Source: an uncultured cyanobacterium
GTDB taxonomy: Bacteria > Cyanobacteriota > Cyanobacteriia > Cyanobacteriales > Cyanobacteriaceae
Direction of reading: 5' to 3'
NCBI GenBank assembly: GCA_963710605.1
Contig: CAVQBA010000001.1
Span: 64,001-128,000, forward strand
DNA: 64,000 nucleotides
Within the stretch, counting starts at the first letter, position 1; the number at the start of each line of letters is the position of its first letter. Position numbers and translations under genes: made by a program. Positions 19,290-59,323 of the stretch are shown here, one piece after another. The notes below the pieces were generated by a model that ran no database searches, was not told the DNA's origin, and saw only the letters and a program-made list of their open reading frames with translations.

Positions 19290-19502
19290 TCATAAAAGTT
19301 TTTTAAATTCTGCAATAGTCAAACCAGAACCTTTGATAATTGTAGCCATTGTATAAGCGTTGATGGGATTAGCTCTAGGAATAGTTAAAATATGTTCTCC
19401 ATCGTCATCGTTATATGTTTTCCTTGTCGAACAATCACAAAACCTACTTTCTCAAAGGCTTTAACAGCTCTTAAGTGATTAACTACCTGAAAGTTTAGGC
19501 AT
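19290..19502 (-). pseudogene. HicA family toxin with two frameshifts
   Basis: Reconstructed MPKLSG/VNHLRAVKAFEKVGFVIVRQGKHITM/DGEHILTIPRANPINAYTMATIIKGSGLTIAEFKKLL; start overlaps hicB stop. Confidence 0.75.
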
Positions 19503-19701
19503 AATTTGTTTCAACCTCTAAATAGATTGATTCTATGTTTTTATCTAATTCTGCTTTAACTTCTAGATAAACAGCAATCGCATCTTTGATGTTTTCAATT
19601 GCTTTAATTCTGGTTTCTCCTTGAGATGCACAACCTGGTAAATGAGGACACCAAATATGATAGCCTTCTTCTGTCTTTTGTAGGTTAACTTTATATTGCA
19701 T
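19495..19701 (-). CDS. HicB family antitoxin (short form)
   Basis: CPHLPGCASQGETRIKAIENIKDAI. Confidence 0.88.
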   Translation of the reverse strand: MQYKVNLQKTEEGYHIWCPHLPGCASQGETRIKAIENIKDAIAVYLEVKAELDKNIESIYLEVETNYA

Positions 19702-20586: not shown

Positions 20587-20772
20587 CTAAGACATTTGTA
20601 CACCTTTTCTTAATAATTCTGCTAAGATTGTACCTCTTTGATTCTCACTTAAATCTGATAACTCTAGTTGATTAATTAAAGATAAAACATCATAACATTC
20701 TTCTTTAAATTCCTTAATTAAAGTATTTAATGTAGAATTATCAACATTGATTTTATTTTGAGCTAGTTGCAT
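20587..20772 (-). CDS. Small hypothetical protein, possibly truncated
   Basis: 61-aa helical ORF coupled (TAATG) to a decayed upstream ORF. Confidence 0.45.
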   Translation of the reverse strand: MQLAQNKINVDNSTLNTLIKEFKEECYDVLSLINQLELSDLSENQRGTILAELLRKGVQMS

Positions 20773-21033: not shown

Positions 21034-23667
21034 TTATTTAGCACCTGCGGGCATACCTAAAATATCCTCAATTTTGGGCATATCTTCTAAGGCAATAACT
21101 CGCCCTTCATCTTCAAAATTGTCAATTTCGTTGAAGTTTAGGTAACGATATAAATCATCTTTAAAAGGATCTATTTTTTCATTGACGATCGTCATATACT
21201 CTTCTACAGTAGGTATTTTACCGAGTAACGCACAGACTGCCGCTAACTCAGCACTACCAAGATACACTCTTGCACCTTTACCCATACGGTTATTAAAGTT
21301 ACGGGTAGAAGTAGAGAATACAGTTGCCTCATCTTCCACACGAGCTTGGTTGCCCATACAAAGCGAACAACCAGGCATTTCCGTTCTTGCACCCGCCGCC
21401 GCAAAGATACCATACATACCTTCATTACGTAGCTGTTGCTCATCCATACGAGTTGGAGGACAAATCCACAAACGCCCTTTAACTGTACCTGCACCTTCAA
21501 GGATTTTCGCCGCCGCACGATAATGTCCGATATTAGTCATACACGAACCGATGAAGACTTCATCAACCACATCACCAGCACATTCACTCATCAGTTTAAT
21601 GTTATCAGGATCGTTTGGTGCGGCAACGATCGGCTCTTTAATCTCATCTAAGTTTACCACGATCGTATCGACATATTCGGCCTTTTCATCCGCAGACATC
21701 AACGAAGGATTAGCTAACCATTCTTCCATTTTTGCCATCCGACGTAACAAAGTACGAGCATCAGTATAACCTCTAGCAATCATATTTTTTAATAAGACTA
21801 CATTCGATCGAAGATATTCAGCTACAGTTTCTTCGCTTAGTTTTATTGTACTACCAGAGCAAGATCTTTCAGCCGTCGCATCAGTCAATTCAAAAGCCTG
21901 TTCAACTTTCAAATCTGGCAAACCTTCCATTTCCATGATACGTCCGTTGAAGACATTAATTTTATCACCTTTATTATAAGTTAGCTTACCTTCTTGCATC
22001 GCTACCCAAGGAATGGCATTGACAATATCTCGTAAAGTCACACCTGGTTGTAATTCACCAGTAAATTTGACTAACACCGATTCGGGCATATCCAATGGCA
22101 TCGCTCCAAGTGCCGCCGCAAAAGCTACTAAACCTGAACCTGCGGGGAAGGAAATACCGAGGGGGAAACGAGTATGAGAATCACCACCCGTACCGACTGT
22201 ATCGGGTAATAACATTCTATTTAACCAAGAGTGAATGATACCATCACCGGGACGTAAAGCAACACCACCACGATTAGCAAAGAAGTCAGGTAAGTTTTTG
22301 TGGGTATTGATATCAACAGGCTTAGGATAAGCGGCGGTATGACAAAAAGTTTGTAAAGTCAAATCGGCGTTGAAACCCAAACAAGCTAATTCTTTTAATT
22401 CATCACGAGTCATTGGTCCTGTGGTATCCTGAGAACCAACAGTCGTCATAATCGGTTCGCAAGAAGTGCCGGGTAAGATACCTTCAACACCACAAGCTTT
22501 GCCGACCATTTTTTGAGCGAGGGTAAATCCGACCTCACCCCCGTCCCCTCTCCTCGCAAGAGAGGGGGGTACTGGGCGGACAAATAGTTCGCTAGCAGGT
22601 AAACCTAATGCTTGACGAGTTTTATCGGTTAAAGCACGTCCGATTAATAAAGGTATTCTTCCTCCCGCTCTAACTTCATCTAAAATAGTTTCGGGTTTTA
22701 GATCGAAATTACAGATGGTTTCACCGCTTTCGCTTTCGATTTTTCCTTCGTAAGGATAGATGGTGATAACATCTCCTGTGTTCAAATTATTGACATCACA
22801 TTCGATCGGTAATGCACCAGAATCTTCAGCAGTATTAAAGAAAATCGGGGCTATTTTACCACCTAAAACGTATCCACCAGCTTTTTTATTAGGAACATAG
22901 GGAATCTCTTCTCCTAGATGCCATAAAACCGAGTTGATAGCAGATTTACGAGACGATCCAGTCCCTACAACATCGCCTACATAAGCTACGGGATGTCCTT
23001 TTTCTTTAAGTTTAGCAATTACATCTAAACCATCTGGCATTCTCGATTCTAACATCGCCAAGGCGTGTAAAGGAATATCAGGGCGAGTAGTAGCGTGAGG
23101 TGCAGGAGACAAGTCGTCGGTATTAGTTTCGCCTTCTACTTTAAAGATAGTAACGGTAATGCTTTTGGGTACTTTTGGTTTACCAATAAACCATGTCGCA
23201 TTTGTCCAAGCATCGATTACTTGTTTGGCATGAGGATTAGTGTCGGACAATTCGAGGACATCGTTAAAAGCATCAAAAACTAAGATAGTTTTACTTAAAG
23301 CGTTAGCGGCTTCGGATGCGATGTTACTATCTTTTGATTTAAGTAGTTTGACTAATGACTGGACATTATAACCACCCATCATTGTACCGAGTAAACTGAC
23401 TGCACCTTGAGAGGAAATTAAAGGTGATTTGATTTCACCATTAGCTACTGCGGTAAGAAACCCTGCTTTGACATAAGATGCTTCGTCAACTCCTGGGGGT
23501 ATTCTATCCCGAAGTAAATCCATCAATTCTTCTCTTAATTCTTGAGGCGGATTTTTAAGCATCTCGCATAGTTGCGATGTCTGCTCGGCGTTGAGAGGTA
23601 AAGGAGGAATACCTTGTTTTTTTCTTTCTTCTACGTGTTGATGGTATGTTTCTAACCAAGTTGCCAT
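21034..23667 (-). CDS. acnB: Aconitate hydratase B
   Basis: [51 protein letters not shown]. Confidence 0.97.
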
Positions 23668-23796: not shown

Positions 23797-25020
23797 ATGA
23801 ATTCTCAAGAAAAAGATAAAGCTATCTGGCTTATTTTGAGAGCATTAGCGATACAATTTCTTCCTATTATATTTATTCAATATTTGAGTTCTCAATTTAA
23901 TCTAGTTTGGGAAAATTTATTACTGTATAATGTTATTTCTTGTTTGTTATGGGGATTATTACTTTATGGATATATCCCTTTTATCAAGGGCTGTCGCCAT
24001 TATATTAAAAGTAAAGGTTATTCTGCTCATTGGGGTTGGCTAGGATTATTGAGTATTTTTGGTCTTTTTCTTTTATCGTTAATTCCGCCTAAAGCTCCTA
24101 TTATTTTGTCTCCAGAAATCTCAGATAAAGAGTCAATAAATCAGCCTTTTAGCAATATTAATCTCTTAGAAATTTTGGTATTATATTTGTTGAATTCTTA
24201 TATTGTCATGGCGTATTTTGCTTACTTAATTATTTTTATTACCGATCGGCAGAACGAAATTGAGGACTTATTTCAAGTAATAGATACTCCCATAGAATAT
24301 ATTGTTGTTGGAATTATTATTTCTATTTTTTCGTCATTGTTGATTAGAGATTTGAAATTAGTCGGTTTTGCTATTAAAGACTTTATTCCTGATTTTCAGA
24401 TCAACTGGACAATAGTTATTAAATCAACTTTTCTTTACAGTATTTTTATTATTTCATTTGGGAGATTAGTCTATTATTGGCTTTCTTTTATTTTTCCTAA
24501 TTATATAGAAAATCTAATTAACTCTAACCGTCCTACCAATTTTAATGTATTGGTAGCAGAAATATTTTTCAGCATATTAATTCTTCCAATTTTTGATTTA
24601 ATTATTTGTCTTGTTCTACAAAAACAGGCTCTTAAATGGAATAATAAAATAAGTATATTATTTTTATCTATTGTATCCTCTTTAATGTCTTTTTCACCTT
24701 CTTTTTTTGGTTCTTTCTTACACGTAATTATCTGGGCGATATTATTTTATAAAACAGCAAGTTTACTTAATATATTCATTTTTCAAACCTTTATTAACTT
24801 GATATTTAATTTTATCTATATTATTACTTATAGAAATAATAATAACTTGTTTAATATTTCAATTATAGAGTATCAAGAAATACATCAACCATATTTAATT
24901 TTATACTCTATTTTAGCTATGATATCGATTACATTTATAATCAATTTTATTTATAAAAATTTCCCTAAAGAAAATGACTTAATTCCTTTATATAAAAATA
25001 GAAGCAAACTATTATCTTAA
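23797..25020 (+). CDS. Polytopic membrane protein, degenerate CPBP/CAAX-protease-like
   Basis: Many hydrophobic helices; ILPIF..LQKQALKW and ILFYKTASLL resemble CPBP layout without the catalytic residues. Confidence 0.5.
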   Translation: MNSQEKDKAIWLILRALAIQFLPIIFIQYLSSQFNLVWENLLLYNVISCLLWGLLLYGYIPFIKGCRHYIKSKGYSAHWGWLGLLSIFGLFLLSLIPPKAPIILSPEISDKESINQPFSNINLLEILVLYLLNSYIVMAYFAYLIIFITDRQNEIEDLFQVIDTPIEYIVVGIIISIFSSLLIRDLKLVGFAIKDFIPDFQINWTIVIKSTFLYSIFIISFGRLVYYWLSFIFPNYIENLINSNRPTNFNVLVAEIFFSILILPIFDLIICLVLQKQALKWNNKISILFLSIVSSLMSFSPSFFGSFLHVIIWAILFYKTASLLNIFIFQTFINLIFNFIYIITYRNNNNLFNISIIEYQEIHQPYLILYSILAMISITFIINFIYKNFPKENDLIPLYKNRSKLLS

Positions 25021-25025
25021 TTTTT

Positions 25026-25181
25026 TTAACCTTTTGCTACTTCTAACCATCCCTCGACAGCTTCTGTTACCATTTCCATCAAATGTTCATAACTTTCTCC
25101 CCATGTATGACAACCAGGTAAAGCAGGTACAGTAGCACACCAAATATCATCTTCTTGCCAAACAATAACTTTGATATTCAT
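25026..25181 (-). CDS. HicB family antitoxin, 51 aa, probably truncated (absent from the ORF track)
   Basis: MNIKVIVWQEDDIWCATVPALPGCHTWGESYEHLMEMVTEAVEGWLEVAKG. Confidence 0.75.
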   Translation of the reverse strand: MNIKVIVWQEDDIWCATVPALPGCHTWGESYEHLMEMVTEAVEGWLEVAKG

Positions 25182-25331
25182 TATATTTTTCGTTTCAAAA
25201 TTTATTTTTACGATAGCAGAAATTTAGCTTTTTATAGGAAATGCGATCGATCGTTTGTAGTTGTGGCTTTAGCCATAAAGATGAATGTTTTTTGATGGAG
25301 TTAGAAGTGCGATCGTATCTTAACAAATCCA

Positions 25332-25670
25332 CTATTTAGTACTAATAGACCGATCTAAAGTATCAACAATCCATTGATTCAAACTCTTCCCTGAAGTTGA
25401 TGCCCTAACAGCGATTTCGGCGTGTAAAGTCGGTGATATTCGCAGATTGAATTTTCCCGAATACTCTTTACGTGGTTCAACTCCATCTTCAATACACATA
25501 TCCAAAAATACTTTTAATGAAGTTGCACCTTCTTGACGTAACCCTTGAATATCTGTAGCGTAAAAATCCGCTCCACCGTTTAAATCAATAAATTCTCCAC
25601 GAAACATATCAATATCTGGATCGTATTGAATAATGGCTCTGTAGCCGTTAATTTCCATTATATTTATCAT
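25332..25670 (-). CDS. hicB: HicB antitoxin with RHH domain
   Basis: YSGKFNLRISPTLH...SLNQWI; ATGA overlap with hicA. Confidence 0.9.
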   Translation of the reverse strand: MINIMEINGYRAIIQYDPDIDMFRGEFIDLNGGADFYATDIQGLRQEGATSLKVFLDMCIEDGVEPRKEYSGKFNLRISPTLHAEIAVRASTSGKSLNQWIVDTLDRSISTK

Positions 25671-25924
25671 GGCTCTACCCCGTTTTCTTTTAACCATTTA
25701 CGAATACTTACTACCGCTCCTTTATCTGTTTTTGGGGAAGGATGTGGTCTATGAAAAACACGCCTTTGCCCAAACAATCGAACACCTATTCTAGAGCCTT
25801 CTCTTTCACTTAATTCACCATCAAGGGCGATAAACAAAGCTTCAATATCTTTCCAATCAATATTGGCACTAGTTGGTTGAGTAAAGATGAGTTCTAATGT
25901 TTTGCGATGCTTACGTTTTATCAC
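25667..25924 (-). CDS. hicA: HicA family toxin
   Basis: WKDIEALF...EGSRIGV...FHRPHP. Confidence 0.9.
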   Translation of the reverse strand: MIKRKHRKTLELIFTQPTSANIDWKDIEALFIALDGELSEREGSRIGVRLFGQRRVFHRPHPSPKTDKGAVVSIRKWLKENGVEP

Positions 25925-25929
25925 TATTA

Positions 25930-25950
25930 TAGTACCATTATTTAGTACTA
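25930..25950. promoter_or_regulatory. Putative HicB operator
   Basis: TAGTAC-N9-GTACTA inverted repeat just upstream of hicA. Confidence 0.45.
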
Positions 25951-26057
25951 ACAAAAGAAAATAATCGTTACAAAACTTCGTCTAGTAGATAAGTACGATA
26001 GATTTTTATCTAGATTGAAGGTGCGATTAGATTAAGTACAATTTCTTTGTTGCCACA

Positions 26058-26261
26058 TTATATTAAGTCAGAATCTTTTAAATTTGCTTGTTTCATCACG
26101 GTTTTTAGTAAACCTATTTTTAAATCTTGATTAGCATGAATAGGGATAGATATACTTTGATTCTCTTTTTGATAGCGATGATGACTACCTTTAACCCTAA
26201 CTAACCGCCATCCCTTTTTCTCCAATATTTTGCCTAATTTTTTCCCTGATATTGCTTTCAT
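26058..26261 (-). CDS. HicA family toxin
   Basis: GWRLVRVKGSHH...IPIH..DLKIGLL. Confidence 0.9.
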   Translation of the reverse strand: MKAISGKKLGKILEKKGWRLVRVKGSHHRYQKENQSISIPIHANQDLKIGLLKTVMKQANLKDSDLI

Positions 26262-26455
26262 ACAGTTAACTCAACCACTTTATCGGAAGGACTAAGATTT
26301 TCTGGTTCATCCTCCGCATATAAACTGATAACTTCTTTCAGGTTTTCTAAAACTTCATCAATAGTTTCACCTTGTGTATAACATCCCTGAAAAATTGGTA
26401 CTTCTGCCCAATATCCACCTTCTTCGGCTTCATGAATTATGGCTTTAACTTTCAT
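26258..26455 (-). CDS. HicB family antitoxin (short form)
   Basis: EEGGYWAEVP..GCYTQGET. Confidence 0.9.
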   Translation of the reverse strand: MKVKAIIHEAEEGGYWAEVPIFQGCYTQGETIDEVLENLKEVISLYAEDEPENLSPSDKVVELTV

Positions 26456-26611
26456 TTGATTTTATTTGAATCATTTATTATTTGCTAGAAACTTAAGTTC
26501 ATTATAATAAACACAGAGATCCTTTATCGGCTCTAGTTTTCAAACGGTGAAAGGTTTTTTTGTAGAGGTTAGAGATACGATCAGGCGAAGCCTGGCACTG
26601 CGTGATCGTTT

Positions 26612-26863
26612 TTATTTTAATAGTCTTTCATATTCTGCATGACTTCCTATCCATACCCAAATATAATCTTCTCCCTCCTTAAAAGCTAAAGCACGGTAAT
26701 TAATCCCAATTCTTGCTGACCAAAATTTCCCTACTTTTTTTAAAGATAAAGAAGGATGATTTGAGTTGTTTTTTAAGAGTTCAAAATTCTTTTTTGCTAA
26801 AATTTGAGTTGATTGAGGTAACTGGTTAAAACATTCCCAAAATCTCGCATTAGTTCGATGCAC
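26612..26863 (-). CDS. RelE/ParE superfamily toxin
   Basis: HPSLSLKKVG..WSARIGINYRAL...WIGSHAEYE. Confidence 0.82.
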   Translation of the reverse strand: MHRTNARFWECFNQLPQSTQILAKKNFELLKNNSNHPSLSLKKVGKFWSARIGINYRALAFKEGEDYIWVWIGSHAEYERLLK

Positions 26864-27064
26864 TTATAACTCCTGTAATTGATTTTTACTCTTTTCTAGT
26901 AAAGCTTCCTCAATTAAAAAATCAAGTTTTCCCGCATTAGAATCTTCCTCAATTTGCTTGTCCCATTTTTGCTCGTCTAACTCATTAATCCAATTTTTTA
27001 AATAGCTAAAGTCATTAGGCGTAAGAGTTTCTATTTCTGCCTGAATTAATTGTAATTTACTCAT
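26864..27064 (-). CDS. Putative antitoxin of the RelE/ParE-like toxin
   Basis: Acidic 66-aa protein (WDKQIEEDSNAGKLDFL) abutting the toxin gene. Confidence 0.7.
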   Translation of the reverse strand: MSKLQLIQAEIETLTPNDFSYLKNWINELDEQKWDKQIEEDSNAGKLDFLIEEALLEKSKNQLQEL

Positions 27065-27215
27065 ATTATCTATTTTTAAACATCATAGTTTTTGATATTT
27101 CGCTGTTATTCTAACATTTTAGTAAAGGTTGGAAGTACGATCGGGCGAAGCCCACCACTTCAATTATTTATAGATAAAATATTAGTAATCTTTTTTGATA
27201 GTTAGTGACAAATTC

Positions 27216-27437
27216 ATGAGACAAGTTTTATTTTATAGGGATGAAGACGACTATTGGATAGCAGAATGTCCAAGTTTAAAAGGTTGCGTTTCTCAAGGTG
27301 AGACAAAAGATATTGCCTTGGTAAATATTAAAGAAGCCATCAATGGTTACATAAAAGCTTTAGAAGAGGATAATATCCCTATTCCTGCCGAAAATTACGA
27401 CGAATTAGGGCGATCGACAAAACTAAACCAACTATAA
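27216..27437 (+). CDS. HicB family antitoxin (no adjacent cognate toxin)
   Basis: WIAECPSLKGCVSQGET. Confidence 0.85.
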   Translation: MRQVLFYRDEDDYWIAECPSLKGCVSQGETKDIALVNIKEAINGYIKALEEDNIPIPAENYDELGRSTKLNQL

Positions 27438-27482
27438 TTAACTCAAGATAAACTAAAAAATTTGAAGAGTAGAGCAGTAAAT

Positions 27483-27692
27483 ATGACAGAAATAGTATTT
27501 TTAGTAGAAGATGCACCCGAAGGTGGATATACAGCAAGGGCTTTAAGTGAGTCTATTTTTACCGAAGCAGATGACTTAGAATCTTTACGAGAAATGGTAA
27601 AAGATGCCGTTAATTGTCATTATGACGAGATCGAAAATCGTCCTAAAATTATTCGTTTACATATCGTCAGAGACGAGGTATTAGCAGTATGA
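27483..27692 (+). CDS. HicB-like antitoxin
   Basis: EGGYTARAL..SIFTEADD...VKDAVNCH; overlaps a hicA-like gene. Confidence 0.8.
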   Translation: MTEIVFLVEDAPEGGYTARALSESIFTEADDLESLREMVKDAVNCHYDEIENRPKIIRLHIVRDEVLAV

Positions 27693-27928
27693 AACTGCCT
27701 AGAGATTTATCCAGTGATGACTTAATTAAAAAACTATCTAAGTTAGGTTACGAAATTACTCGTCAAACAGGTAGCCATATAAGAGTAACTACTTCTGAAA
27801 ACGGTACACATCAAATAACTATTCCTGCCCATAATCCTATTAAAATAGGTACTTTAAATAATATTTTACGTGATGTTGCTCAACATTTAAATCTAAGTAA
27901 AAATGAACTATTGAAAAGATTATTTTGA
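27689..27928 (+). CDS. HicA family toxin
   Basis: GYEITRQTGSHI...ITIPAH..IKIGTL. Confidence 0.9.
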   Translation: MKLPRDLSSDDLIKKLSKLGYEITRQTGSHIRVTTSENGTHQITIPAHNPIKIGTLNNILRDVAQHLNLSKNELLKRLF

Positions 27929-27968
27929 AAATGCGATCGGGCAAAGCCTACCAATGCTTAATCGCTTC

Positions 27969-28277
27969 TCAGGCAAAATATTGCGATAATACCAACACTA
28001 AAGTAATTACTCCCAAAATAATCATTAATCCTGCGGGCATAAACTTACCTGTTTTTTTTAGTCGTACAGAAAAGACAATAATCAAAAGTAAAGTTATTGC
28101 ACCAGCCATCAAAAAAGCCCACTCTAATCCTTGAGTAATTAAATAACTAGAAATTAACATCAAAATTCCACTGATACTACCTGAGATTAAAGAAGGTGTA
28201 CTTTTAGCTTGAAGATAACCGATTACCCCGCCAATGATACAGATTACGCCATAGATTGAACTTGCAATGACTGCCAT
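27969..28277 (-). CDS. TMEM14 family small membrane protein
   Basis: GGVIGY..KSTPSLISG, KFMPAG. Confidence 0.85.
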   Translation of the reverse strand: MAVIASSIYGVICIIGGVIGYLQAKSTPSLISGSISGILMLISSYLITQGLEWAFLMAGAITLLLIIVFSVRLKKTGKFMPAGLMIILGVITLVLVLSQYFA

Positions 28278-28363
28278 AGTAATTTACTCGTGTTAAAGTG
28301 GTTGTTTATTTTATTGTTTCGCATCGTGTTATAAAAGTCATTAGTCTTATTATCGATCGATTT

Positions 28364-29266
28364 ATGGATTTAATTTTCAGTGAATACAAAGGAGAAATAG
28401 CGGCTTTAGTTGGGGCGGCGTTATGGGCAATTTCGGCAACTGTTTATAGTAAGGTTGGTGCAACTATTCCCCCTTTGTTTTTGAATTTAAGTAAAGGTTT
28501 AATTGCGATCGTTTTTATTTTACTTACTTTACTCATCACCAAACATCAATTTTCTGATCTTAACCTAATTTCGCTCGTTGGTTTAACTATTAGTGGCATT
28601 ATGGGCATCGGTGTAGGAGACACTGCTTATTTTCAAGCCTTAAACCATTTAGGAGCGAGAAAAACTCTCCTTTTAGAAACTTTAGCACCACCTCTAACTG
28701 CTATTTTAGCTTTTGTTTTCCTGCAAGAAAAACTCAACAGTATTATTTGGATTGCGATGATAATCACGATTATAGGTATTGCTTGGGTAATTAATGAAAG
28801 AAACCTCCAAGCCGATAGTAAAAATGAGAATCTGACTATTGGTATTCGTTGGGCATTAGTTGGTGTCGTTTCTCAAGCTATTGGTGCAGTGATTGCGAGG
28901 TATGCTTTATCGACAACCAATGTATCTCCCCTTGAAAGTGCTTTGATTCGTTTAATTGGTGGCACGATTATTATTATTATTTTACTGGCTGGGCAAAAAA
29001 AACCTTTATCTCCATTATTGAGTAATAATTGGTCAATAAAATTAGTTAGTACTTTAATTGCCACCGCTTTTGCTAGTACTTATTTGGGTATTTGGTTGCA
29101 ACAAACAGCATTCAAATTTGCTCCTGCTGGAATTGCTCAAACTCTTCTAGCGACTAGCCCTTTATTTGTCTTACCTTTGGTTGCCTTTTCGGGGGAAAAA
29201 ATTACTTATCGATCGATATTAGGTGCGATGATTGCTTTATTAGGTGTATTTTTATTGTTTAATTAG
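28364..29266 (+). CDS. DMT/EamA family transporter
   Basis: About 10 hydrophobic helices; GIGVGDTAYF. Confidence 0.85.
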   Translation: MDLIFSEYKGEIAALVGAALWAISATVYSKVGATIPPLFLNLSKGLIAIVFILLTLLITKHQFSDLNLISLVGLTISGIMGIGVGDTAYFQALNHLGARKTLLLETLAPPLTAILAFVFLQEKLNSIIWIAMIITIIGIAWVINERNLQADSKNENLTIGIRWALVGVVSQAIGAVIARYALSTTNVSPLESALIRLIGGTIIIIILLAGQKKPLSPLLSNNWSIKLVSTLIATAFASTYLGIWLQQTAFKFAPAGIAQTLLATSPLFVLPLVAFSGEKITYRSILGAMIALLGVFLLFN

Positions 29267-32558: not shown

Positions 32559-35500
32559 TTAAGTTTGCACAGACTCTAACCATTTTTCAGCTTTAGAATA
32601 ATTATCTTGTTGTACTTGTTTAATCGCTTTTTGGTAATTTAAAGTTACACCCCAAACATCACTATTAAAACGTTTTTCTCGTTTCATGTTATCAAAAAAG
32701 TCAACCGCTTCAAGGTGAGACATTTTTCCTTGAGATTTAGCGATCGCAAACATCGTGTCAAAAACATTATCCGCCATTTTTGCATCTCCACAAACATAAT
32801 AATGACATTGAGGATTACTTAAAATTTTCCATACCTGTGCCGGTTTTTTTTCCATTAAATGTTGCACATAAGCCTTTTGTTTTTTCAGACGAGAAAAAGC
32901 GACAGCAATATAAGTCAGTACTCCTGTTTTTCGCCATTGTTTTAAATGTTCTCGGTAAATAAAATCATCATGGTTACGACAACCAAAATACAAATGAGCT
33001 TCACCTAATGTTTGTCTTTGTTCGAGCAACGCCTGACGGTACTCCATAAAGGCAATTAAAGGAGATATACCAGTACCAGGTCCCACCATCAAAATAGGTG
33101 CGTGAGGGTCTTCTGGGGGGCGGAAACTCGATGTATTAACCCCAATTCTTGCGGTTTGCTGAGGTTCAAGATTCGCTAGATAGTTAGAACACAATCCTTG
33201 TCTTATCTTACCTGCATCGGTTTTAATTTGTAGTACTCCAACTGTAATTTGAATTTTATCAGGATGAAGTAAGTTAGAGGAAGAAATCGAATATAGACGG
33301 GGTTTTTGCTGAGGTAAAATTTCTAGTAAAGAGCCTAAATCGATCGTTGCTGAGGGAAATTGATCGAATAAATCAACTACCGTCATAAATTTATCGATCA
33401 AACTTTTAGTTAAATTTTTACTATCTTCATCCGCATTAGCTTGAGTGATAATTTCGAGCCATGTTGTGAGAGTATTTTTTTCTTGAGGATTAGTAACTAC
33501 TGAGTTAAGATAAGTCAATAACTCTTCTAATGGTTCACGCAAAGACAAATCTAATTCTTCTGTTAATACTTGTCTTACAGTTGTTGGTAGTTGAATCGGT
33601 AATTCATCTTCTAGTTTTGTACCATCACTAGTCACATAACTAGCGGTAAAATAAGCCTCAGGATTAAGATCGAGTTTTGTACATAAACGATCGACAATTT
33701 CGCTAGAATTACAAGGAAGAATTGATAAATGATCGCCTGTTTCGTAGTTAAGCTCAGTCTTACTAATATCAAAAGCTATGTAACGAGTCGATCGACTTCC
33801 TGCAACTACTTTGCCTAAAAGTTCTTTGTTGGCGACTAGAGGCACTCTCACACCTTTATCTGAATCAATAGCTAAAGTTTCAGTAGTAAGATTATCTAAA
33901 AAAGTAACTTCTAGTTTAGGTGCATTTATACTAGTAGCTGAAGAATTTAAATCATCTCCTAAGACACGAGAAATCAAACCTAACCATTGTTTGAAAGTAT
34001 TGGCTTGCCCTTTAATTTCATCGGCTTTGTGTAAAGGTACAATCGAATTTGCTCCTGCTTTTCTTAATCCTTTATCGATCGAGATTCCTGCCGCACAAAA
34101 ATGCTCATAAACCGTACTCCCAATCCCTAACACTGCATAATTAAGCTGACTAAGAGAATTAGTTTTTTGTTGTTGATTAAGCCATTGAAGAAACTTTCTG
34201 CCGTTACTAGGTATCGAGCCATTGCCAAAGGTAGAGGTAATCACTAATAATAGTTTTTCTTGACTTATTTTACCAATATCATATTCATCCAACGCCATTA
34301 CTTGGGTATTATGTTGTTGGAGTTGACGGGAACTTTTACGAGCAAAACCTTCTGCTGTCCCTGTTTCGGAGGCATAAAGAATCAAAATACGATCGTTTTG
34401 ATCGTCGTCTTCTTGCTTGATGGTGATAAACTGTTCTAAATCAATATCTTTTTCAACTGCCCAACGATCGGCACCATGATGATAAGCTGGATCTAGATAA
34501 AAGTCACGCATTTGATGATGCCATACAGGGCAAGTACTACCACCAGATGGAGGCACAACCCAACCATAATCAGCAGGGCATTCTCTACCAGATTTTTTTT
34601 CTCTTAAATCATGGCTTAAAAATTGTCTGGATGCGGACTGATGATCGACCATTGAGACTTTAGCTTTTTGAAATGAATGCAAGATAGCGACATTGGTTTC
34701 TAAGGCAACTCTATCTCTCCATAAGGTAGATTCAGCACTAGTATCAAGATTTAATAACTTAGCAACATCATCCATTCTGTCATAACGCCAATCTTCTAAA
34801 AAATCACGGCTAAGTTCGGTTTCCATATACCAACCATTAAAAGGCAGACAGCCATAAGTTATCCCACCAATATCCATACGGAAGTTACTAATAGCAGGTA
34901 TGGCATACCAACGTAAATCGAGAGATTCAAATTCGGGGATAGATGGGTGGGTAATTGGTACTTCTAAAACATCTTCTTTATTCCATTCGTAGATTTGGGG
35001 TTTTTTACCCGGTATTTCGATTACTAAAGGTAAAATATCATAATGACTTTTCTGGGCTGGTGGTTGCCACCCTAATTCGATAATTGCCTCGGTGAGATCT
35101 AAATTAGCACGATCGCCTAATACGCTACCATCAGGTTGTGGATAAGCCGCATAACGAATTAGCTGAGAATTCCAAATTCTTGGTCCCCATCTTTCTTTCG
35201 GTAATTTAGGACGAAATACGCTCATCACAATTTGAATATTACCGCCATTAGTAGCTAAACGTAAATGTTCTTCTAATTGCTTAAACATCTCATCAGGCTC
35301 GGTTACCTGACGGCAATCTCGAACTATCATATTACTCCACTGTATCCGTGCAATACATTTAGAAGCATTACGCCAAGATAGTTGAGCACCATAAGCTAAT
35401 TCTTCGTAGCTATGTGTATATGTACCCGTTGCTTGTACCTGTGACTCTATCTCTTGCCAACGTTGCAATCTAGCTTCTTGTGACCATCCTTGTTCTTGAG

Positions 35501-36962
35501 ATATTATATCTAAAAATCGACGTGCTTTTTTAAGTAACCTTTCTTCATTAATTTTAGGTAACTTCATTATATTGGTAACACGATCGAATAAAGTTTGCCA
35601 TGCTTGTTTTAATTCAGGATTAAAATCAGGTACATATTTCTCAAACAAGACAAACATCGTATCGGAAATAGCAGGATAAGCAGAAGAAGGAACACCAACT
35701 TTACCATGTAATTGCCCTAGCATTCTTAATTCTCGTAACATAGCATCACTACTACCTGCTTTGAGACAACGAACTAAAAACTCAAGAGATTCAAATAAAT
35801 GTAGAGAAAGATAATCCATATCCGCTCGACCAAAAATTGGTAAAACAGAGGGATATTTATGGAATAAAATTTGATAAAACTCCATTCCCATTTCATGTTT
35901 ACGATTGCTAAATACTGTCCAAGAATCAGCCATTTTCAAAAGCATTTCAGAAGATAGTGCTAATTGATAACGATCGATCGCTTCTACCATTGGTAAAATA
36001 ACATGGGTATTAAAAAACTTATCTAAAGCTGAATCGCTACCTAAACTTAAATTTTCACGATCGTATTCTTCTAAATAAGGAATAGAAGGCAACATCCACA
36101 TCCAAACTTGTCTTGCTTTCAACCAATGTTTAGGTTGCATACCAATATCGGCAAACAAAGCCCCATATTCTTCAACTGAATTTAATCCATCTCCTTTTTC
36201 TGGAGGTACACCCATCATCGGCTCATTAATTACGTTTTGGGTTTGGGGTGTTAGTTGACGCACACAACAATCAAACAAATCAAAAAAGTAATCGCCTATA
36301 CTGTCAATTGCTTCATCAAACAAATATTCTAATTCAGGCTCTTCTAATAATAACCGTTTGAAAAACTGCTCCATTTCTAACTCTTTCCAAGCTCGTAATT
36401 TATTCCAAACGTCTTTGACGATTACTACTTCTGGAGGCGAAAGTGTGGTAGCTGTCGGAAGTTCGATCGGTGTTTCGTCTTCACTTTGTTTCGTTGAATT
36501 TTTTCTTTTTTGCTGATGATAACGATCGTCTTTTGTACTAGTAAGAATATTTAGTTTGTTATTATTAAGACTAGTCTGGCTTGAATTAACATTTACGCCT
36601 ATTTTCAATTCAGGTGCTACATCCCAACTAGAAATGGCGAATTCTAATTCTTTAAATTTATCTTCATTTAATACTTCTTGCGTCGCAAACTCGACTGTTT
36701 CTAAATCTTGCCAAGGATTAGTAATATCTCCAGTACGATAACTAATCTTTACTTTGACGTAGCAGTCTCCTTTATACTTAATATCAATTAACCAGTTAGG
36801 TTGTAATCTAGTTAATAATGACTTTTGTAATTTTGTTTGTCCATCATCATCAGAATGTAGAGTTACAGAACATCTATATCTATAATCAGCGGCTTGAGGA
36901 AAGTTATTAGCTTTGATTTCGGTAATCTGAATAGTTCTGACAGTAGTAGCAATAGCAGACAT
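32559..36962 (-). CDS. nos: Nitric oxide synthase with globin, oxygenase and flavodoxin/FAD-NADPH reductase domains
   Basis: [13 protein letters not shown] heme-thiolate motif, [21 protein letters not shown] (FMN), [34 protein letters not shown]; globin segment FYQILF...LGQLH. Confidence 0.95.
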
Positions 36963-37297: not shown

Positions 37298-38420
37298 CTA
37301 TTCACTGTGTTGAAGATACTTACGACTAATTTTAACAATCCTCGCTGAAGCTTTACCATCACCAAAAGGATTAATCGCCTCCGCCATTTGCTCATAACTA
37401 TTTTGATTACTTAACAATTCACTAGCTGAAGAGAGTATTTTGGCTGAACTTGTCCCAATTAGTTTAGCTGTACCTGCTGTGACAGCTTCTGGTCTTTCTG
37501 TAGTCTCTCGTAATACTAAAACAGGTTTACCTAAACTAGGCGCTTCTTCTTGCAACCCTCCTGAATCGGTGAGTAAGAGATAACTTCTTTGGATTGCTCC
37601 GACTAATTCTTGATAGTCTAAAGGTTCGGTTAAAAAGACTCGATCATGATTACCCAGATTTTGTTGTAAAGGCTCTCTAACGATCGGATTACGGTGTAAA
37701 GGAAGTAAAATCGCTACATCAGGAAAACTAGTCTAAAATTGATTGTAAGGCTTTGATAATATCTTGTAAAGGTTCACCCCAATTTTCTCGACGATGTACT
37801 GTAACCAGTAAAACACGGTATTTTTGCCAATCCAAACCTGTCACATCACAAGCAGGATTTTGATCAGCAACTGAAAGTAAAGCATCAATAACCGTATTAC
37901 CTGTTTGATGAATCTCTCCTGTGACATCAGAATTTTTGAGGTTTTCTACCGCTAAAGTTGTCGGGGCAAAATTAAGTTGAGCAATCTGTGAAATCAAACG
38001 ACGATTAGCTTCTTCAGGAAAGGGATTATAAATATTATTTGTTCTTAAACCAGCCTCAACGTGTCCGATCGGTATTTGTTGATAAAATGCAGTCAAAGCG
38101 GCGGCAAATGCTGTAGTGGTGTCACCTTGAGCAATAACTAATTGAGGGTTTATTTGCTCGTATAGTTTTCCTAACCCTTGTAAGCTACGACAAGTAATAT
38201 CATTTAAAGTCTGTTTTGGTTGCATAATATCTAAATCAAAAGTAGCAGTTAAGCCAAATAAATCCATGACCTGAGCTACCATTTCTCGGTGTTGTCCTGT
38301 CAAAATGACCTTGGTATCAAAATCATCATTTTCTTGAAAAGATTTGATTACAGGTGCGAGTTTGATGGCTTCTGGACGTGTTCCGAGGGTGATACAAATA
38401 GTTTTTTGATTGACAACCAT
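37298..38420 (-). pseudogene. wecB: UDP-N-acetylglucosamine 2-epimerase split by a +1 frameshift near 37729
   Basis: GTRPEAIK, GHVEAGLR, HRREN in the first frame; FPDVAILLPLHRNP...DSGGLQEEAP continues after one extra base. Confidence 0.9.
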
Positions 38421-57607: not shown

Positions 57608-58030
57608 TTAATTTGTAGGGCGGTTTTGTTCTTGGACATATTGTTTTAGGGTTTCTATAGTCACACCACCACACGAAGATATATAGTAACTGCCTGACCA
57701 CAAAGCATCTTTCCAATAATATTGTTCAAATCTTTCCTTAAACTCTTTTTTCAGATAGCGGCTTGTCACGGTTTTTAGATTGTTAACCAACTTGCTTAGT
57801 TGTATTTGTGGAGTGTATTGAAACAGTAAATGCACATGATCTTTTTCACCATTAAACTCTAAACATTCACATCCCCATTTTTCTGACAACTCCCTTACTA
57901 TTTGTTCTAATCTAACTAACATTGCTTTGTTGAATAACTTTTTACGATATTTAGGCACTAACACCAAGTGAGCTTTTAAGTCTGATCTACTTCTAGCACT
58001 TGAAATTAAATTACTATTTGGGCTTGACAC
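57608..58030 (-). CDS. tnpA: IS200/IS605 Y1 transposase
   Basis: HLVLVPKYR, DHVH (HUH), LWSGSYY, YVQEQ. Confidence 0.95.
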   Translation of the reverse strand: MSSPNSNLISSARSRSDLKAHLVLVPKYRKKLFNKAMLVRLEQIVRELSEKWGCECLEFNGEKDHVHLLFQYTPQIQLSKLVNNLKTVTSRYLKKEFKERFEQYYWKDALWSGSYYISSCGGVTIETLKQYVQEQNRPTN

Positions 58031-58081
58031 TATTTTAATTAAAATGATACACTAAGCATCATCTTAACTCTAATTAAGTTG

Positions 58082-59323
58082 ATGAGACAAGCCTATCAGT
58101 ACAAACTACTTCCTGACGCTGAACAAAAAAGACAAATTAATAGATGGTTAGATATGCTCAGGCATCAATATAACTATTTATTGGCAGATAGGTTTGCTTG
58201 GTGGCAAGAAAATCGCAATGAGGCGGTATTACCAAGTGGTGATTTTTGTCTCTATGCTTGTACTTTACCCCCCAAGCAGTTAAGAGAGAATCCTAATTAT
58301 CATTCACAAAGTGCTAGTCTTCCTCAATTAAAAAAAGATCGCCCTTGGTATGGTGAAATGTATTCGCAAGTATTGCAAGATGCAGTAAAACGTGTTCAGT
58401 TAGCTTTTGATAGATTCTTAAAAGGTGATTTTAAGGGGAAAAGAAGTGGTAAACCTCGATTTAAGAATCATAATCGCTACCGTACTTTTACTTACCCTCA
58501 AGCAAAGGATAACTGGATTCAAGGGAACAAAATTAAGTTTCCCAAATTAGGACTCATCAAGTTCATTTCTCATCGTTGTTTTAATGATGGTTGCACTGTA
58601 AAGACGGCTTCTATCACTAAGAAAGCTGATGGTTATTACGTCACTTTGATTGTAGAAGATAAGTCAATACTAGACTTTGAGCCTGATATAACACCGACAG
58701 AAAATAACTCTATTGCCATTGATTGTGGTTTGGAGAAACTGTATGTGGATGATGAGGGGAATCAAGTATTACCTCGAAAATTATTTAGAAAAGCAGAGGA
58801 AAAACTAGCTAAATTGCAACGTAAATTAGCAGATGACAAACCGAAGAAGAAGGCTAAAAGACTCATCCGTCAGAAGATTGCTAAGTTACACCAAAAAATA
58901 GCTAGACACAGAAGACAATGGCATTTTGAGGAAGCCAAAAAAATATGTTTCAAAGCTGATGTAATCTTTGTGGAAGACCTACAAATAGCTAATCTCAGAC
59001 GGAAAAATAAACCGAAAAAAGAGGATGGTAAATTTGTGGCGAATGGACAAAGTGCTAAAGCAGGTTTAAACAAGAGTTTTTCTGATTGTGGCATTGCTCA
59101 ATTTTTAGAAATTTTGCAATATCAAGCTAAGAAGCTTGGGAATAAAATAGTTAAAGTCAATCCTTCAAGGACGAGTCAAGTGTGCTATAACTGTTTAAAT
59201 TTAGTACCAAAGAGTCTTTCTGATAGATGGCATAACTGTCCTCATTGCAAAGTTTCGCTAGATAGAGATGAATGTAGTGCAAAATTAATCAAAAAAGTGG
59301 GGTTGGGCATCGCCTCACTATAA
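58082..59323 (+). CDS. tnpB: RNA-guided endonuclease TnpB
   Basis: RuvC IAIDCG / VEDL / DRDE; zinc finger CYNC...CPHC. Confidence 0.95.
   Translation: MRQAYQYKLLPDAEQKRQINRWLDMLRHQYNYLLADRFAWWQENRNEAVLPSGDFCLYACTLPPKQLRENPNYHSQSASLPQLKKDRPWYGEMYSQVLQDAVKRVQLAFDRFLKGDFKGKRSGKPRFKNHNRYRTFTYPQAKDNWIQGNKIKFPKLGLIKFISHRCFNDGCTVKTASITKKADGYYVTLIVEDKSILDFEPDITPTENNSIAIDCGLEKLYVDDEGNQVLPRKLFRKAEEKLAKLQRKLADDKPKKKAKRLIRQKIAKLHQKIARHRRQWHFEEAKKICFKADVIFVEDLQIANLRRKNKPKKEDGKFVANGQSAKAGLNKSFSDCGIAQFLEILQYQAKKLGNKIVKVNPSRTSQVCYNCLNLVPKSLSDRWHNCPHCKVSLDRDECSAKLIKKVGLGIASL

Follow-up and report, generated by a model that had tools for sequence, protein, structure and literature searches.

The sequence considered here, hereafter the window, is a stretch of 64,000 nucleotides (nt) from an uncultured cyanobacterium of the family Cyanobacteriaceae (GenBank assembly GCA_963710605.1), and corresponds to positions 64001-128000 of contig C1 in a 3.93-Mb genome of 33% G+C and 7 contigs (coded G000). 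Upstream of acnB (21034-23667, minus strand), it carries a 2.9-kb array of small toxin-antitoxin (TA) genes punctuated by short repeats, here named J and K, that are built on the palindrome CGATCG (the core) and lie on one strand whatever the direction of the genes between them. The genes, the repeats and the corresponding loci of relatives are described below, together with the ways in which such an array may be assembled. Comparisons across the order involved 201 genomes and those within the family 20 genomes; relatives are coded G001-G026 and their genera g1-g6, and the only genome of the same genus is G001, which is 67% complete.

The Toxin-Antitoxin Array

The array is bounded by an open reading frame (ORF) for a membrane protein of 407 amino acids (aa) without a family (23797-25020) and a Tmemb_14 gene (27969-28277). 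A preliminary description of this DNA had recognized ten small TA genes between them. Eight of the ten are assigned by Pfam to HicA, HicB or ParE-like families, but the other two, at 26864-27064 (minus strand) and 27462-27692 (plus strand), matched nothing in Pfam or NCBIfam and are putative antitoxin genes by position only. From left to right, an orphan gene for a HicB-like antitoxin of 51 aa (25026-25181, minus strand; HicB_lk_antitox, E 7e-9) is followed on the same strand by a 121-aa hicB of the PF05534 type (25332-25697; E 4e-21) and a hicA ORF of 95 aa (25667-25954; HicA_toxin, E 7e-9), the true start of which probably lies further in because the Pfam match begins only at residue 34. A second hicB-hicA pair recognized by Pfam (26058-26455, minus strand) comprises hicA at 26058-26261 and a hicB-like gene at 26258-26455, and is followed by a parE-like toxin gene (26612-26863; ParE_like, E 6e-6) with the 66-aa family-less ORF upstream of it (26612-27064 as a unit, minus strand). 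The last two cassettes are on the plus strand, namely a second orphan hicB-like gene named by Pfam (27195-27437), and the family-less ORF of 76 aa together with a third hicA at 27689-27928 (HicA_toxin, E 4e-15; 27462-27928 as a unit). With toxin and antitoxin domains predicted in adjoining small genes, the hicAB and parDE cassettes would qualify as type II TA systems.

Every cassette of the window occurs singly in other genomes, at 72-92% identity. A block 88% identical to the first orphan hicB-like gene adjoins hicA in G014, and the second hicB-hicA pair has counterparts of 79-92% identity in G002, G006, G013, G017, G018, and G026. Blocks matching the parE pair at 85-92% identity are present in G009, G012, G013, and G017 (the last a 90-nt fragment), those matching the cassette at 27462-27928 at 72-82% identity are in G005, G007, and G019, and the counterpart of the second orphan hicB-like gene in G018 (85% identity) stands next to hicA and to a strong J copy. 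Within G000 itself, 21 HicA, 27 HicB-like, 18 ParE, 6 PIN, and 2 PemK matches were counted, and the corresponding genes were estimated to make up about 1-2% of the genome.

A Mini-Repeat at the Cassette Junctions

The preliminary description had placed copies of a 15-nt motif ending in CGATCG at seven positions of the array and had regarded them as extended sites of the cyanobacterial highly iterated palindrome, HIP1. All seven strings were confirmed at their coordinates on the plus strand. They were then ranked with a leave-one-out weight matrix, a scan of the kind proposed in that description, against the 7.9 million positions of the genome, with the expectation expressed per 2.9-kb span. 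Four sites lie far beyond chance (25301, 6th; 27129, 7th; 27925, 41st; 25235, 72nd; 0.004-0.05 expected in the span) and the site at 26569 is moderate (586th; 0.44 expected), but those at 26015 (1470th; 1.1 expected) and 25987 (17655th; 13 expected) are at chance level. An origin by chance is thus ruled out by the leave-one-out ranks for four to five of the seven and retained for the other two. The strict consensus TTRRARRTRCGATCG has 25 matches in the genome, three of them inside the array. Looser matches elsewhere in G000 fall mostly within ordinary coding sequence, as do 22 of the 23 matches to the pattern GTTRGARRTRCGATC in relatives.

The core itself is abundant. CGATCG occurs 8449 times in G000 (2.15 per kb), against an estimate of about 340 from base composition, and the HIP1 octamer GCGATCGC occurs 708 times, the iterated unit in this genome being the hexamer. 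Its density is 2.20 per kb in long ORFs compared with 1.99 per kb outside them, where approximately 1858 copies lie, and no peak was seen at gene starts or stops in G000; the array is therefore not enriched in cores, and enrichment in the array or at gene ends was rejected. (A count by eye in the 120-nt flanks of 31 hic loci, which gave CGATCG in 25 of 62 compared with about 13 expected, was not used as evidence.) What distinguishes the array is the common flank and strand, not the number of cores. Moreover, the flanks of all 16898 oriented CGATCG sites carry almost no information, and an "extended HIP1" of genome-wide standing was rejected. Since these flanks are uninformative and looser matches are mostly coding, the motif is a local family rather than a general extension of the palindrome.

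That family proved to be larger than the motif. The 15 nt form the 3' part of a mini-repeat of approximately 35 nt, termed J, in which a short insert of about 23 nt lies between two cores; an alignment of 15 copies from seven genomes gave the consensus CGATCG-nATTTTTnTnGGAGTTAGAnGTG-CGATCG, and the motif together with some 15 nt upstream of it recurs at TA junctions in other genera. The sites are consequently better described as parts of J than as extended HIP1. The array contains three strong and two weak J copies, all on the plus strand, where nhmmer scores are far above those of the minus strand. The best copy, J1 (25289-25320, the second site of the preliminary description), scores 23.7 bits on the plus strand (genome-wide E 1e-4) compared with 6.2 bits on the minus strand, and follows the stop codon of the hicB gene at 25332 at a distance of 12 nt. 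J2 (26556-26586, plus strand; 17.7 bits) and J3 (27113-27146, plus strand; 19.4 bits), which correspond to the fifth and sixth sites, are the left and right copies, respectively, of a 43-nt direct repeat. A weak partial copy at the first site (25235-25253, plus strand) scores 10.8 bits with the J model, and a weak J part at the seventh site, which overlaps the stop codon of the third hicA and is followed by a K copy (27924-27965 together, plus strand), scores 7.9 bits. At the third and fourth sites are two decayed J-like units 28 nt apart (25987-26029, plus strand), which are not significant (7.2 bits, E 0.67).

In a scan of all of G000 with nhmmer, only five J matches were obtained at E ≤ 0.01, and all five are beside TA genes: three in the array, and two in a tandem pair (C6:469153-469218) that a small ORF separates from a VapC PIN gene approximately 250 nt away. 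Matches below 14 bits are mostly inside ordinary ORFs. The J model, built from sequence alone, finds weak matches in all 20 genomes of the family, as expected of a model that contains the abundant core, while strong matches cluster. At 13 bits or more, 47 matches were found over 22 stretches (280 kb in total), and for 28 of them the nearest ORF belongs to a TA, restriction-modification/DNA-methylase, or AbiEii-type Pfam family; without the 15 training copies, 16 of 32 matches have a TA, restriction-modification, or abortive infection (Abi)-type ORF as nearest neighbor. The distance from the preceding cassette's stop codon to J is usually 10-50 nt. In genus g3, J is nearly absent (best E 0.3-0.7). 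An exact-pattern scan of genome contigs with the strict Geminocystis-type consensus matched two genomes, this pattern being too strict to gauge the spread of the repeat.

K Inserts and the Behavior of the Repeats

At three junctions of the window, J is followed by K, a 21-nt insert within a CGATCG site. K1 (26579-26608, plus strand), with the structure GATC-AGGCGAAGCCTGGCACTGCGT-GATCG, is built like the published repeat SDR5, can form a hairpin of -8.8 kcal/mol (z -2.7), and is followed by a T-rich run on the plus strand. K2 (27139-27165, plus strand) has a decayed right end, and K3 follows the seventh site. The sites at 26569, 27129, and 27925, K3 included, are 29-nt direct repeats, the first two of which extend to 43 nt at 79% identity, so that the parE pair is flanked exactly by direct repeats. 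The 3' part of these direct repeats, CGATC-RGGCRAAGCC..., was found in 24 of the 201 genomes of the order, compared with one match of a reversed control, at up to 13 copies per genome. In those genomes, the full unit is GCGATC-AGGCGAAGCCTGCCACTTCGC-GATCGC, in which the GATC of a HIP1 site is duplicated around an insert of 21 nt, and a nested variant exists among such inserts. G000 also has an SDR5-like variant of its own, GATCGGCTGAAGCCGGCGCTGCGCGATCG, within CGATCG sites at about eight places (C1:340236, C1:310300, C2:136123/136198, C4:383204, C7:74880, C7:497905, and others), seven of which overlap predicted ORFs and none of which is near TA genes. A K copy at C4:943118 is within a 289-aa ORF and has no link to TA genes.

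These properties bring to mind the small dispersed repeats (SDRs) of cyanobacteria. SDR5 (Elhai et al., 2008, Genome Res 18:1484), with which K was compared by description only, is likewise 21 nt long, and in the available parts of later papers is described as inserted precisely inside HIP1 (PMC4390886, PMC5861425, PMC13756078); J, too, is built as core, insert and core. J and K could accordingly be selfish mini-elements of the SDR type that insert into CGATCG cores, the cassettes themselves being moved by ordinary horizontal transfer and the repeats piling up in TA islands because such DNA is dispensable and often imported. The wide distribution of K-type inserts, the nested variant, and the copies of the G000 variant in ORFs remote from TA genes would all fit. 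However, this would leave unexplained why all five significant J copies of G000 are at TA genes when some 1858 CGATCG sites are available outside long ORFs, why the strand is uniform within arrays, and why blocks of homology end at cores (see below). As an account of the locus, it is considered unlikely.

Both repeats can fold. J copies with both cores form hairpins of 9-15 bp (-8.6 to -10.4 kcal/mol; z -3.5 to -6), as is to be expected of two copies of a palindrome. Given these structures, the T-rich run after K1, and the position of J just after stop codons in most cases, J and K might be stem-loops at operon 3' ends, kept by selection rather than recombination as stabilizers of mRNA, terminators, or insulators that separate toxic modules, in the manner of repetitive extragenic palindromic (REP) or enterobacterial repetitive intergenic consensus (ERIC) sequences. 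Yet they are antisense to four of the six gene units of the window, the J copies of G000 form no hairpin, a simple terminator scan found none at J or K, and Rfam returned nothing relevant for window positions 24000-29000 at E ≤ 1, by which a known RNA family was rejected for either repeat. As break points at cores would also go unexplained, a regulatory role of this kind is very improbable.

A Conserved Hot Spot Upstream of acnB

The regions upstream of acnB in five Geminocystis-like relatives of one genus, oriented like the window and scanned for J at E ≤ 0.03, also bear a row of TA, restriction-modification, or Abi cassettes. In G010, the cassettes extend over 8.6 kb and comprise a restriction-modification pair, an AAA_21 ATPase module, a relE/parE pair, hicB, mazEF, vapBC, phd, and pemIK; all seven J copies there are on one strand, each in a gap between cassettes. 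J is also on the same strand relative to acnB in G015 (3/3), G018 (3/3, with a fourth, weaker same-strand match at E 0.08), and G017 (2/2), and in G006 two of three copies are on the common strand with the third reversed. The preliminary observation that same-strand copies mark cassette boundaries whatever the gene direction was thereby borne out in the window, and the layout recurs at the same place in all five relatives. Four of them share mazEF, hicAB, pemIK, vapBC, and phd cassettes at 77-94% identity, arranged in different order and number, and at some junctions nothing but a bare or decayed core is present. A related repeat with HIP1 at both ends, in three copies on the same strand, borders each of two pairs, relE/parE and hicBA, in G002. 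Overall, the junction repeats of one genome resemble each other and are different from those of other genomes with which it shares cassettes.

Inserted blocks at the 3' side of acnB, as well as those in G010, have duplicated stretches of the 3' or 5' end of this gene as their borders. Extra copies of 35-180 nt of the 3' end (L017, L019, L021) or of the 5' end with the promoter region (L020) were noted near inserted blocks, and by analogy would resemble the target duplications of an insertion hot spot. TA and XisH/XisI islands are present in relatives on that side. There, the window contains hicB, a remnant of HicA, and an ORF of 61 aa (19397-19701, 20587-20772), the last of which is also part of the XisH/XisI islands beside acnB of relatives.

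Break Points at CGATCG Cores

Twenty blocks of homology between the five hot spots, blocks containing acnB being left out, provided 62 unique ends that were compared with random positions from the same stretches. Eighteen of these ends lie within 10 nt of CGATC or GATCG, compared with 5.7% of random positions (an enrichment of about five times), and ten lie within 10 nt of the complete CGATCG, compared with 3.6%.

At several junctions the break is base-exact. The mazEF cassette starts at CGATCG^AGCTTATGATAAAAT, where it follows J in both copies of G015 and a bare GCATCG, with hicAB preceding, in G010 and G018; its end, ...ACAACGATT-CGATCG, leads into J in G010 and directly into hicAB in G015. 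Similarly, the CGATCG after which vapBC starts is preceded by J in G010 and, in G015, by a K-type insert. The parE block that the window has in common with G009, G012, and G017 starts at 26604-26612, at the right-hand GATCG of K1, and ends at 27119-27126, inside J3. For the next cassette, homology sets in at 27163, where K2 has its decayed end, and for the last one it stops at 27918-27927, short of the core at 27934 by 7-16 nt. The proposal that cassettes are added and swapped thus gained support from the reordering of shared cassettes in four relatives and from the enrichment of block ends at cores, but its location at extended HIP1 sites did not survive. Neither of the outcomes set against it was seen, namely a motif equally common at CGATCG sites of ordinary intergenic regions, or break points off the motif.

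Proposed Exchange of Cassettes Through Short Homology

The explanation judged best, with confidence midway between doubt and assurance, is that the region upstream of acnB serves as a recombination hot spot, with exchange of cassettes at CGATCG cores and junction repeats by short-homology recombination of the host. On this reading, whole TA and defense cassettes have been gained, lost, duplicated, inverted, and reordered there, with join points at the CGATCG cores, the form taken by the cyanobacterial iterated palindrome in this low-GC genome. Junctions carry one or two mini-repeats of 35-45 nt, each between two cores, and these, which are alike and one-stranded within a genome, would supply short common homology to neighboring or incoming cassettes. 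A circle, or a fragment that has been taken up, bearing one junction repeat could then recombine with a resident repeat and leave the cassette between two direct repeats, as may have happened with the parE pair. The core being palindromic, a cassette may sit in either direction with the strand of the repeat unchanged. The anatomy of the array, its conservation, the reshuffling of cassettes, and the enrichment of break points at cores were observed; the route of recombination is an inference.

Short-homology or illegitimate recombination by host functions following DNA uptake is favored over a dedicated integrase for three reasons. Firstly, no recombinase gene is near any array. The preliminary description had already reported no integrase, and this held: the eight Phage_integrase matches of G000 come no closer than 58 kb, no IntI is beside the array, and among the surrounding ORFs that were scanned, over about 10 kb (AcrB, a mechanosensitive-channel protein, glutaredoxin, two EamA transporters, and a pentapeptide protein), none encodes a recombinase, nor does any ORF next to a J copy in the relatives. 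Secondly, direct repeats of 43 to approximately 137 nt lie on either side of inserted blocks, the expected trace of a single crossover with a circle bearing that homology. Thirdly, in the available portions of earlier reports, HIP1 is linked to deletion and plasmid recombination (PMC13756078, PMC9239245, PMC4390886), and to the efficiency of homology-dependent transformation (bioRxiv 10.1101/2024.09.10.611283). The particular cases cited are the smtB deletion of Synechococcus PCC 6301 (Gupta, 1993) and, in PCC 7002, HIP1-linked recombination of plasmids (Akiyama, 1998), as recounted in the accessible parts of later papers (PMC13756078, PMC9239245, PMC5861425, PMC4390886). Their break points are likewise at the iterated palindrome, but they are single events at plain HIP1, whereas the locus upstream of acnB is a conserved hot spot that has its own junction repeats and where cassettes have turned over repeatedly.

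Several findings weigh against this explanation. Beyond acnB, nothing is common to the window region and G001, and because this is the genome of the same genus, the gain and loss of cassettes cannot be dated. The uniform strand of J across relatives may simply have been inherited with the locus. No recombinase gene was found in or beside any array examined; 44 of the 62 block ends are away from any core, BLAST ends are imprecise, and those from related genomes are not independent. When loci were picked by J score alone, a TA or restriction-modification neighbor named by Pfam was present for only six of 20 matches and four of 10 clusters (several of the other loci adjoin small gene pairs without a Pfam match). 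Lastly, the J copies of G000 are without the 5' core, form no hairpin, and may be relics.

The same features invite comparison with integrons. Attachment sites of integron cassettes (attC) are imperfect palindromes of about 57-141 nt with RYYYAAC and GTTRRRY ends. J, as judged by reading the sequences, is not an attC, for it is approximately 35 nt long with CGATCG at both ends. Chromosomal integrons and clusters of attC sites lacking integron-integrases (CALIN), such as the super-integrons of Vibrio with their Vibrio cholerae repeats (VCR), are likewise rows of small cassettes with many TA pairs. They also have a same-strand repeat at each cassette boundary, repeats alike within a genome, and contents that vary between relatives, as described in the accessible part of PMC4889954; here, however, IntI and attI are absent and the cassettes point in both directions. 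The array thus works like an integron or CALIN but is not one, since it has no IntI (which a CALIN does not require) and J is not an attC.

Nevertheless, J, and perhaps K, could be the recombination site of a dedicated system for integron-like cassette capture whose enzyme is encoded elsewhere, in which the cores would be cut and rejoined, perhaps on a folded single strand, with cassettes moving as circles; both the system and this mode of action are unlikely. Such a system would account for a one-stranded J placed after stop codons as attC sites are, for repeats that match within a genome but not between genomes sharing the same cassettes, as in chromosomal integrons (PMC4889954, available part), for junctions base-exact at the core, and for the hairpins of intact J copies, and the near-absence of J in g3 would fit a lack of the enzyme there. 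Against this, the hairpin is a trivial result of two palindrome copies, the J copies of G000 want one core, a palindromic core confers no polarity, and no candidate enzyme was found. REP-associated tyrosine transposases (RAYTs) were considered as the mobilizing enzyme and rejected, as none of the three RAYT-like genes of G000 is flanked by J or K. REP sequences and bacterial interspersed mosaic elements (BIMEs) associated with RAYTs are similarly short, palindromic, intergenic repeats near gene ends, but the RAYT-like genes of G000 are flanked by different repeats. Two of these genes, each for a Y1 transposase of 180 aa (C4:589590-590132, C2:30776-31318), lie between hairpin repeats of the form GTAGGTTGGGTT..AACCCAACCTAC, and the third, also of 180 aa, is flanked by yet another repeat.

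With respect to exchange through short homology, such recombination would give the same picture as the "gene-capture platform" of the preliminary description. As no recombinase, excised circle, or empty site in a close strain was found, that platform stays a proposal.

Other Repeats and Genes of the Window and Genome

A further small hairpin repeat, module B (TTTGTAGT..GTGGCTTTAGCCATAA; 25252-25278, plus strand), follows the CGATCG core of the first site. Ten matches with at most two mismatches were found in the genome, six of them with an upstream GTAGT flank as read by eye, and module B also stands behind a J copy in G010 and G013. In G000, this repeat, (T)TTGTAGTN-ATGGCTTTAGCCAT, is an intergenic hairpin of about six copies, including the one in the window and those at C4:354988, C6:16823, C6:442348, C7:364534, and C7:506776; one of them is about 450 nt away from the hicB-like gene at C7:506107-506331 and another about 2.5 kb from a hicAB pair.

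Three tyrosine-recombinase genes are in a row at C1:2657-6283 of G000, with further copies at C5:328986-330553 and C2:201-758. In the window, an IS200/IS605-type TnpA gene (57608-58030, minus strand; Y1_Tnp, 144 bits) adjoins a 414-aa ORF (58079-59323, plus strand). According to Pfam, globin, nitric-oxide-synthase oxygenase, and flavodoxin/FAD/NAD reductase domains are united in a single ORF of 1467 aa (32559-36962, minus strand). UDP-GlcNAc 2-epimerase is split between two ORFs on the minus strand (37298-37555 and 37728-38420; profile positions 2-210 and 270-345), and the gene may be broken or interrupted.

Implications

Defense islands and hot spots likewise have variable TA, restriction-modification, and Abi genes beside a core gene, as acnB is here, across genera. 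Such hot spots are usually served by the integrases of mobile elements. The units found upstream of acnB are, in contrast, single small operons bounded by mini-repeats. No description of junction repeats at TA cassettes, J included, was found in the literature searched, most subscription papers being outside it. For SDR5 in particular, no link to TA cassettes appears in the available parts of PMC4390886, PMC5861425, and PMC13756078, and SDRs, SDR5 included, are there reported only from the Nostocaceae (PMC5861425, PMC13756078). The SDR-type mini-elements described here are outside the group of those earlier reports.

The function of HIP1 has been open for thirty years, according to the portions available of PMC5861425 and PMC13756078. 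Were J the site of a dedicated system, palindromes of the HIP1 type would have a concrete role in the building of defense islands. In any case, a defined and conserved locus with cassettes joined at CGATCG cores offers a test bed for the link of HIP1 to recombination and gene transfer, and points to an integron-like assembly of TA and defense islands without an integron.

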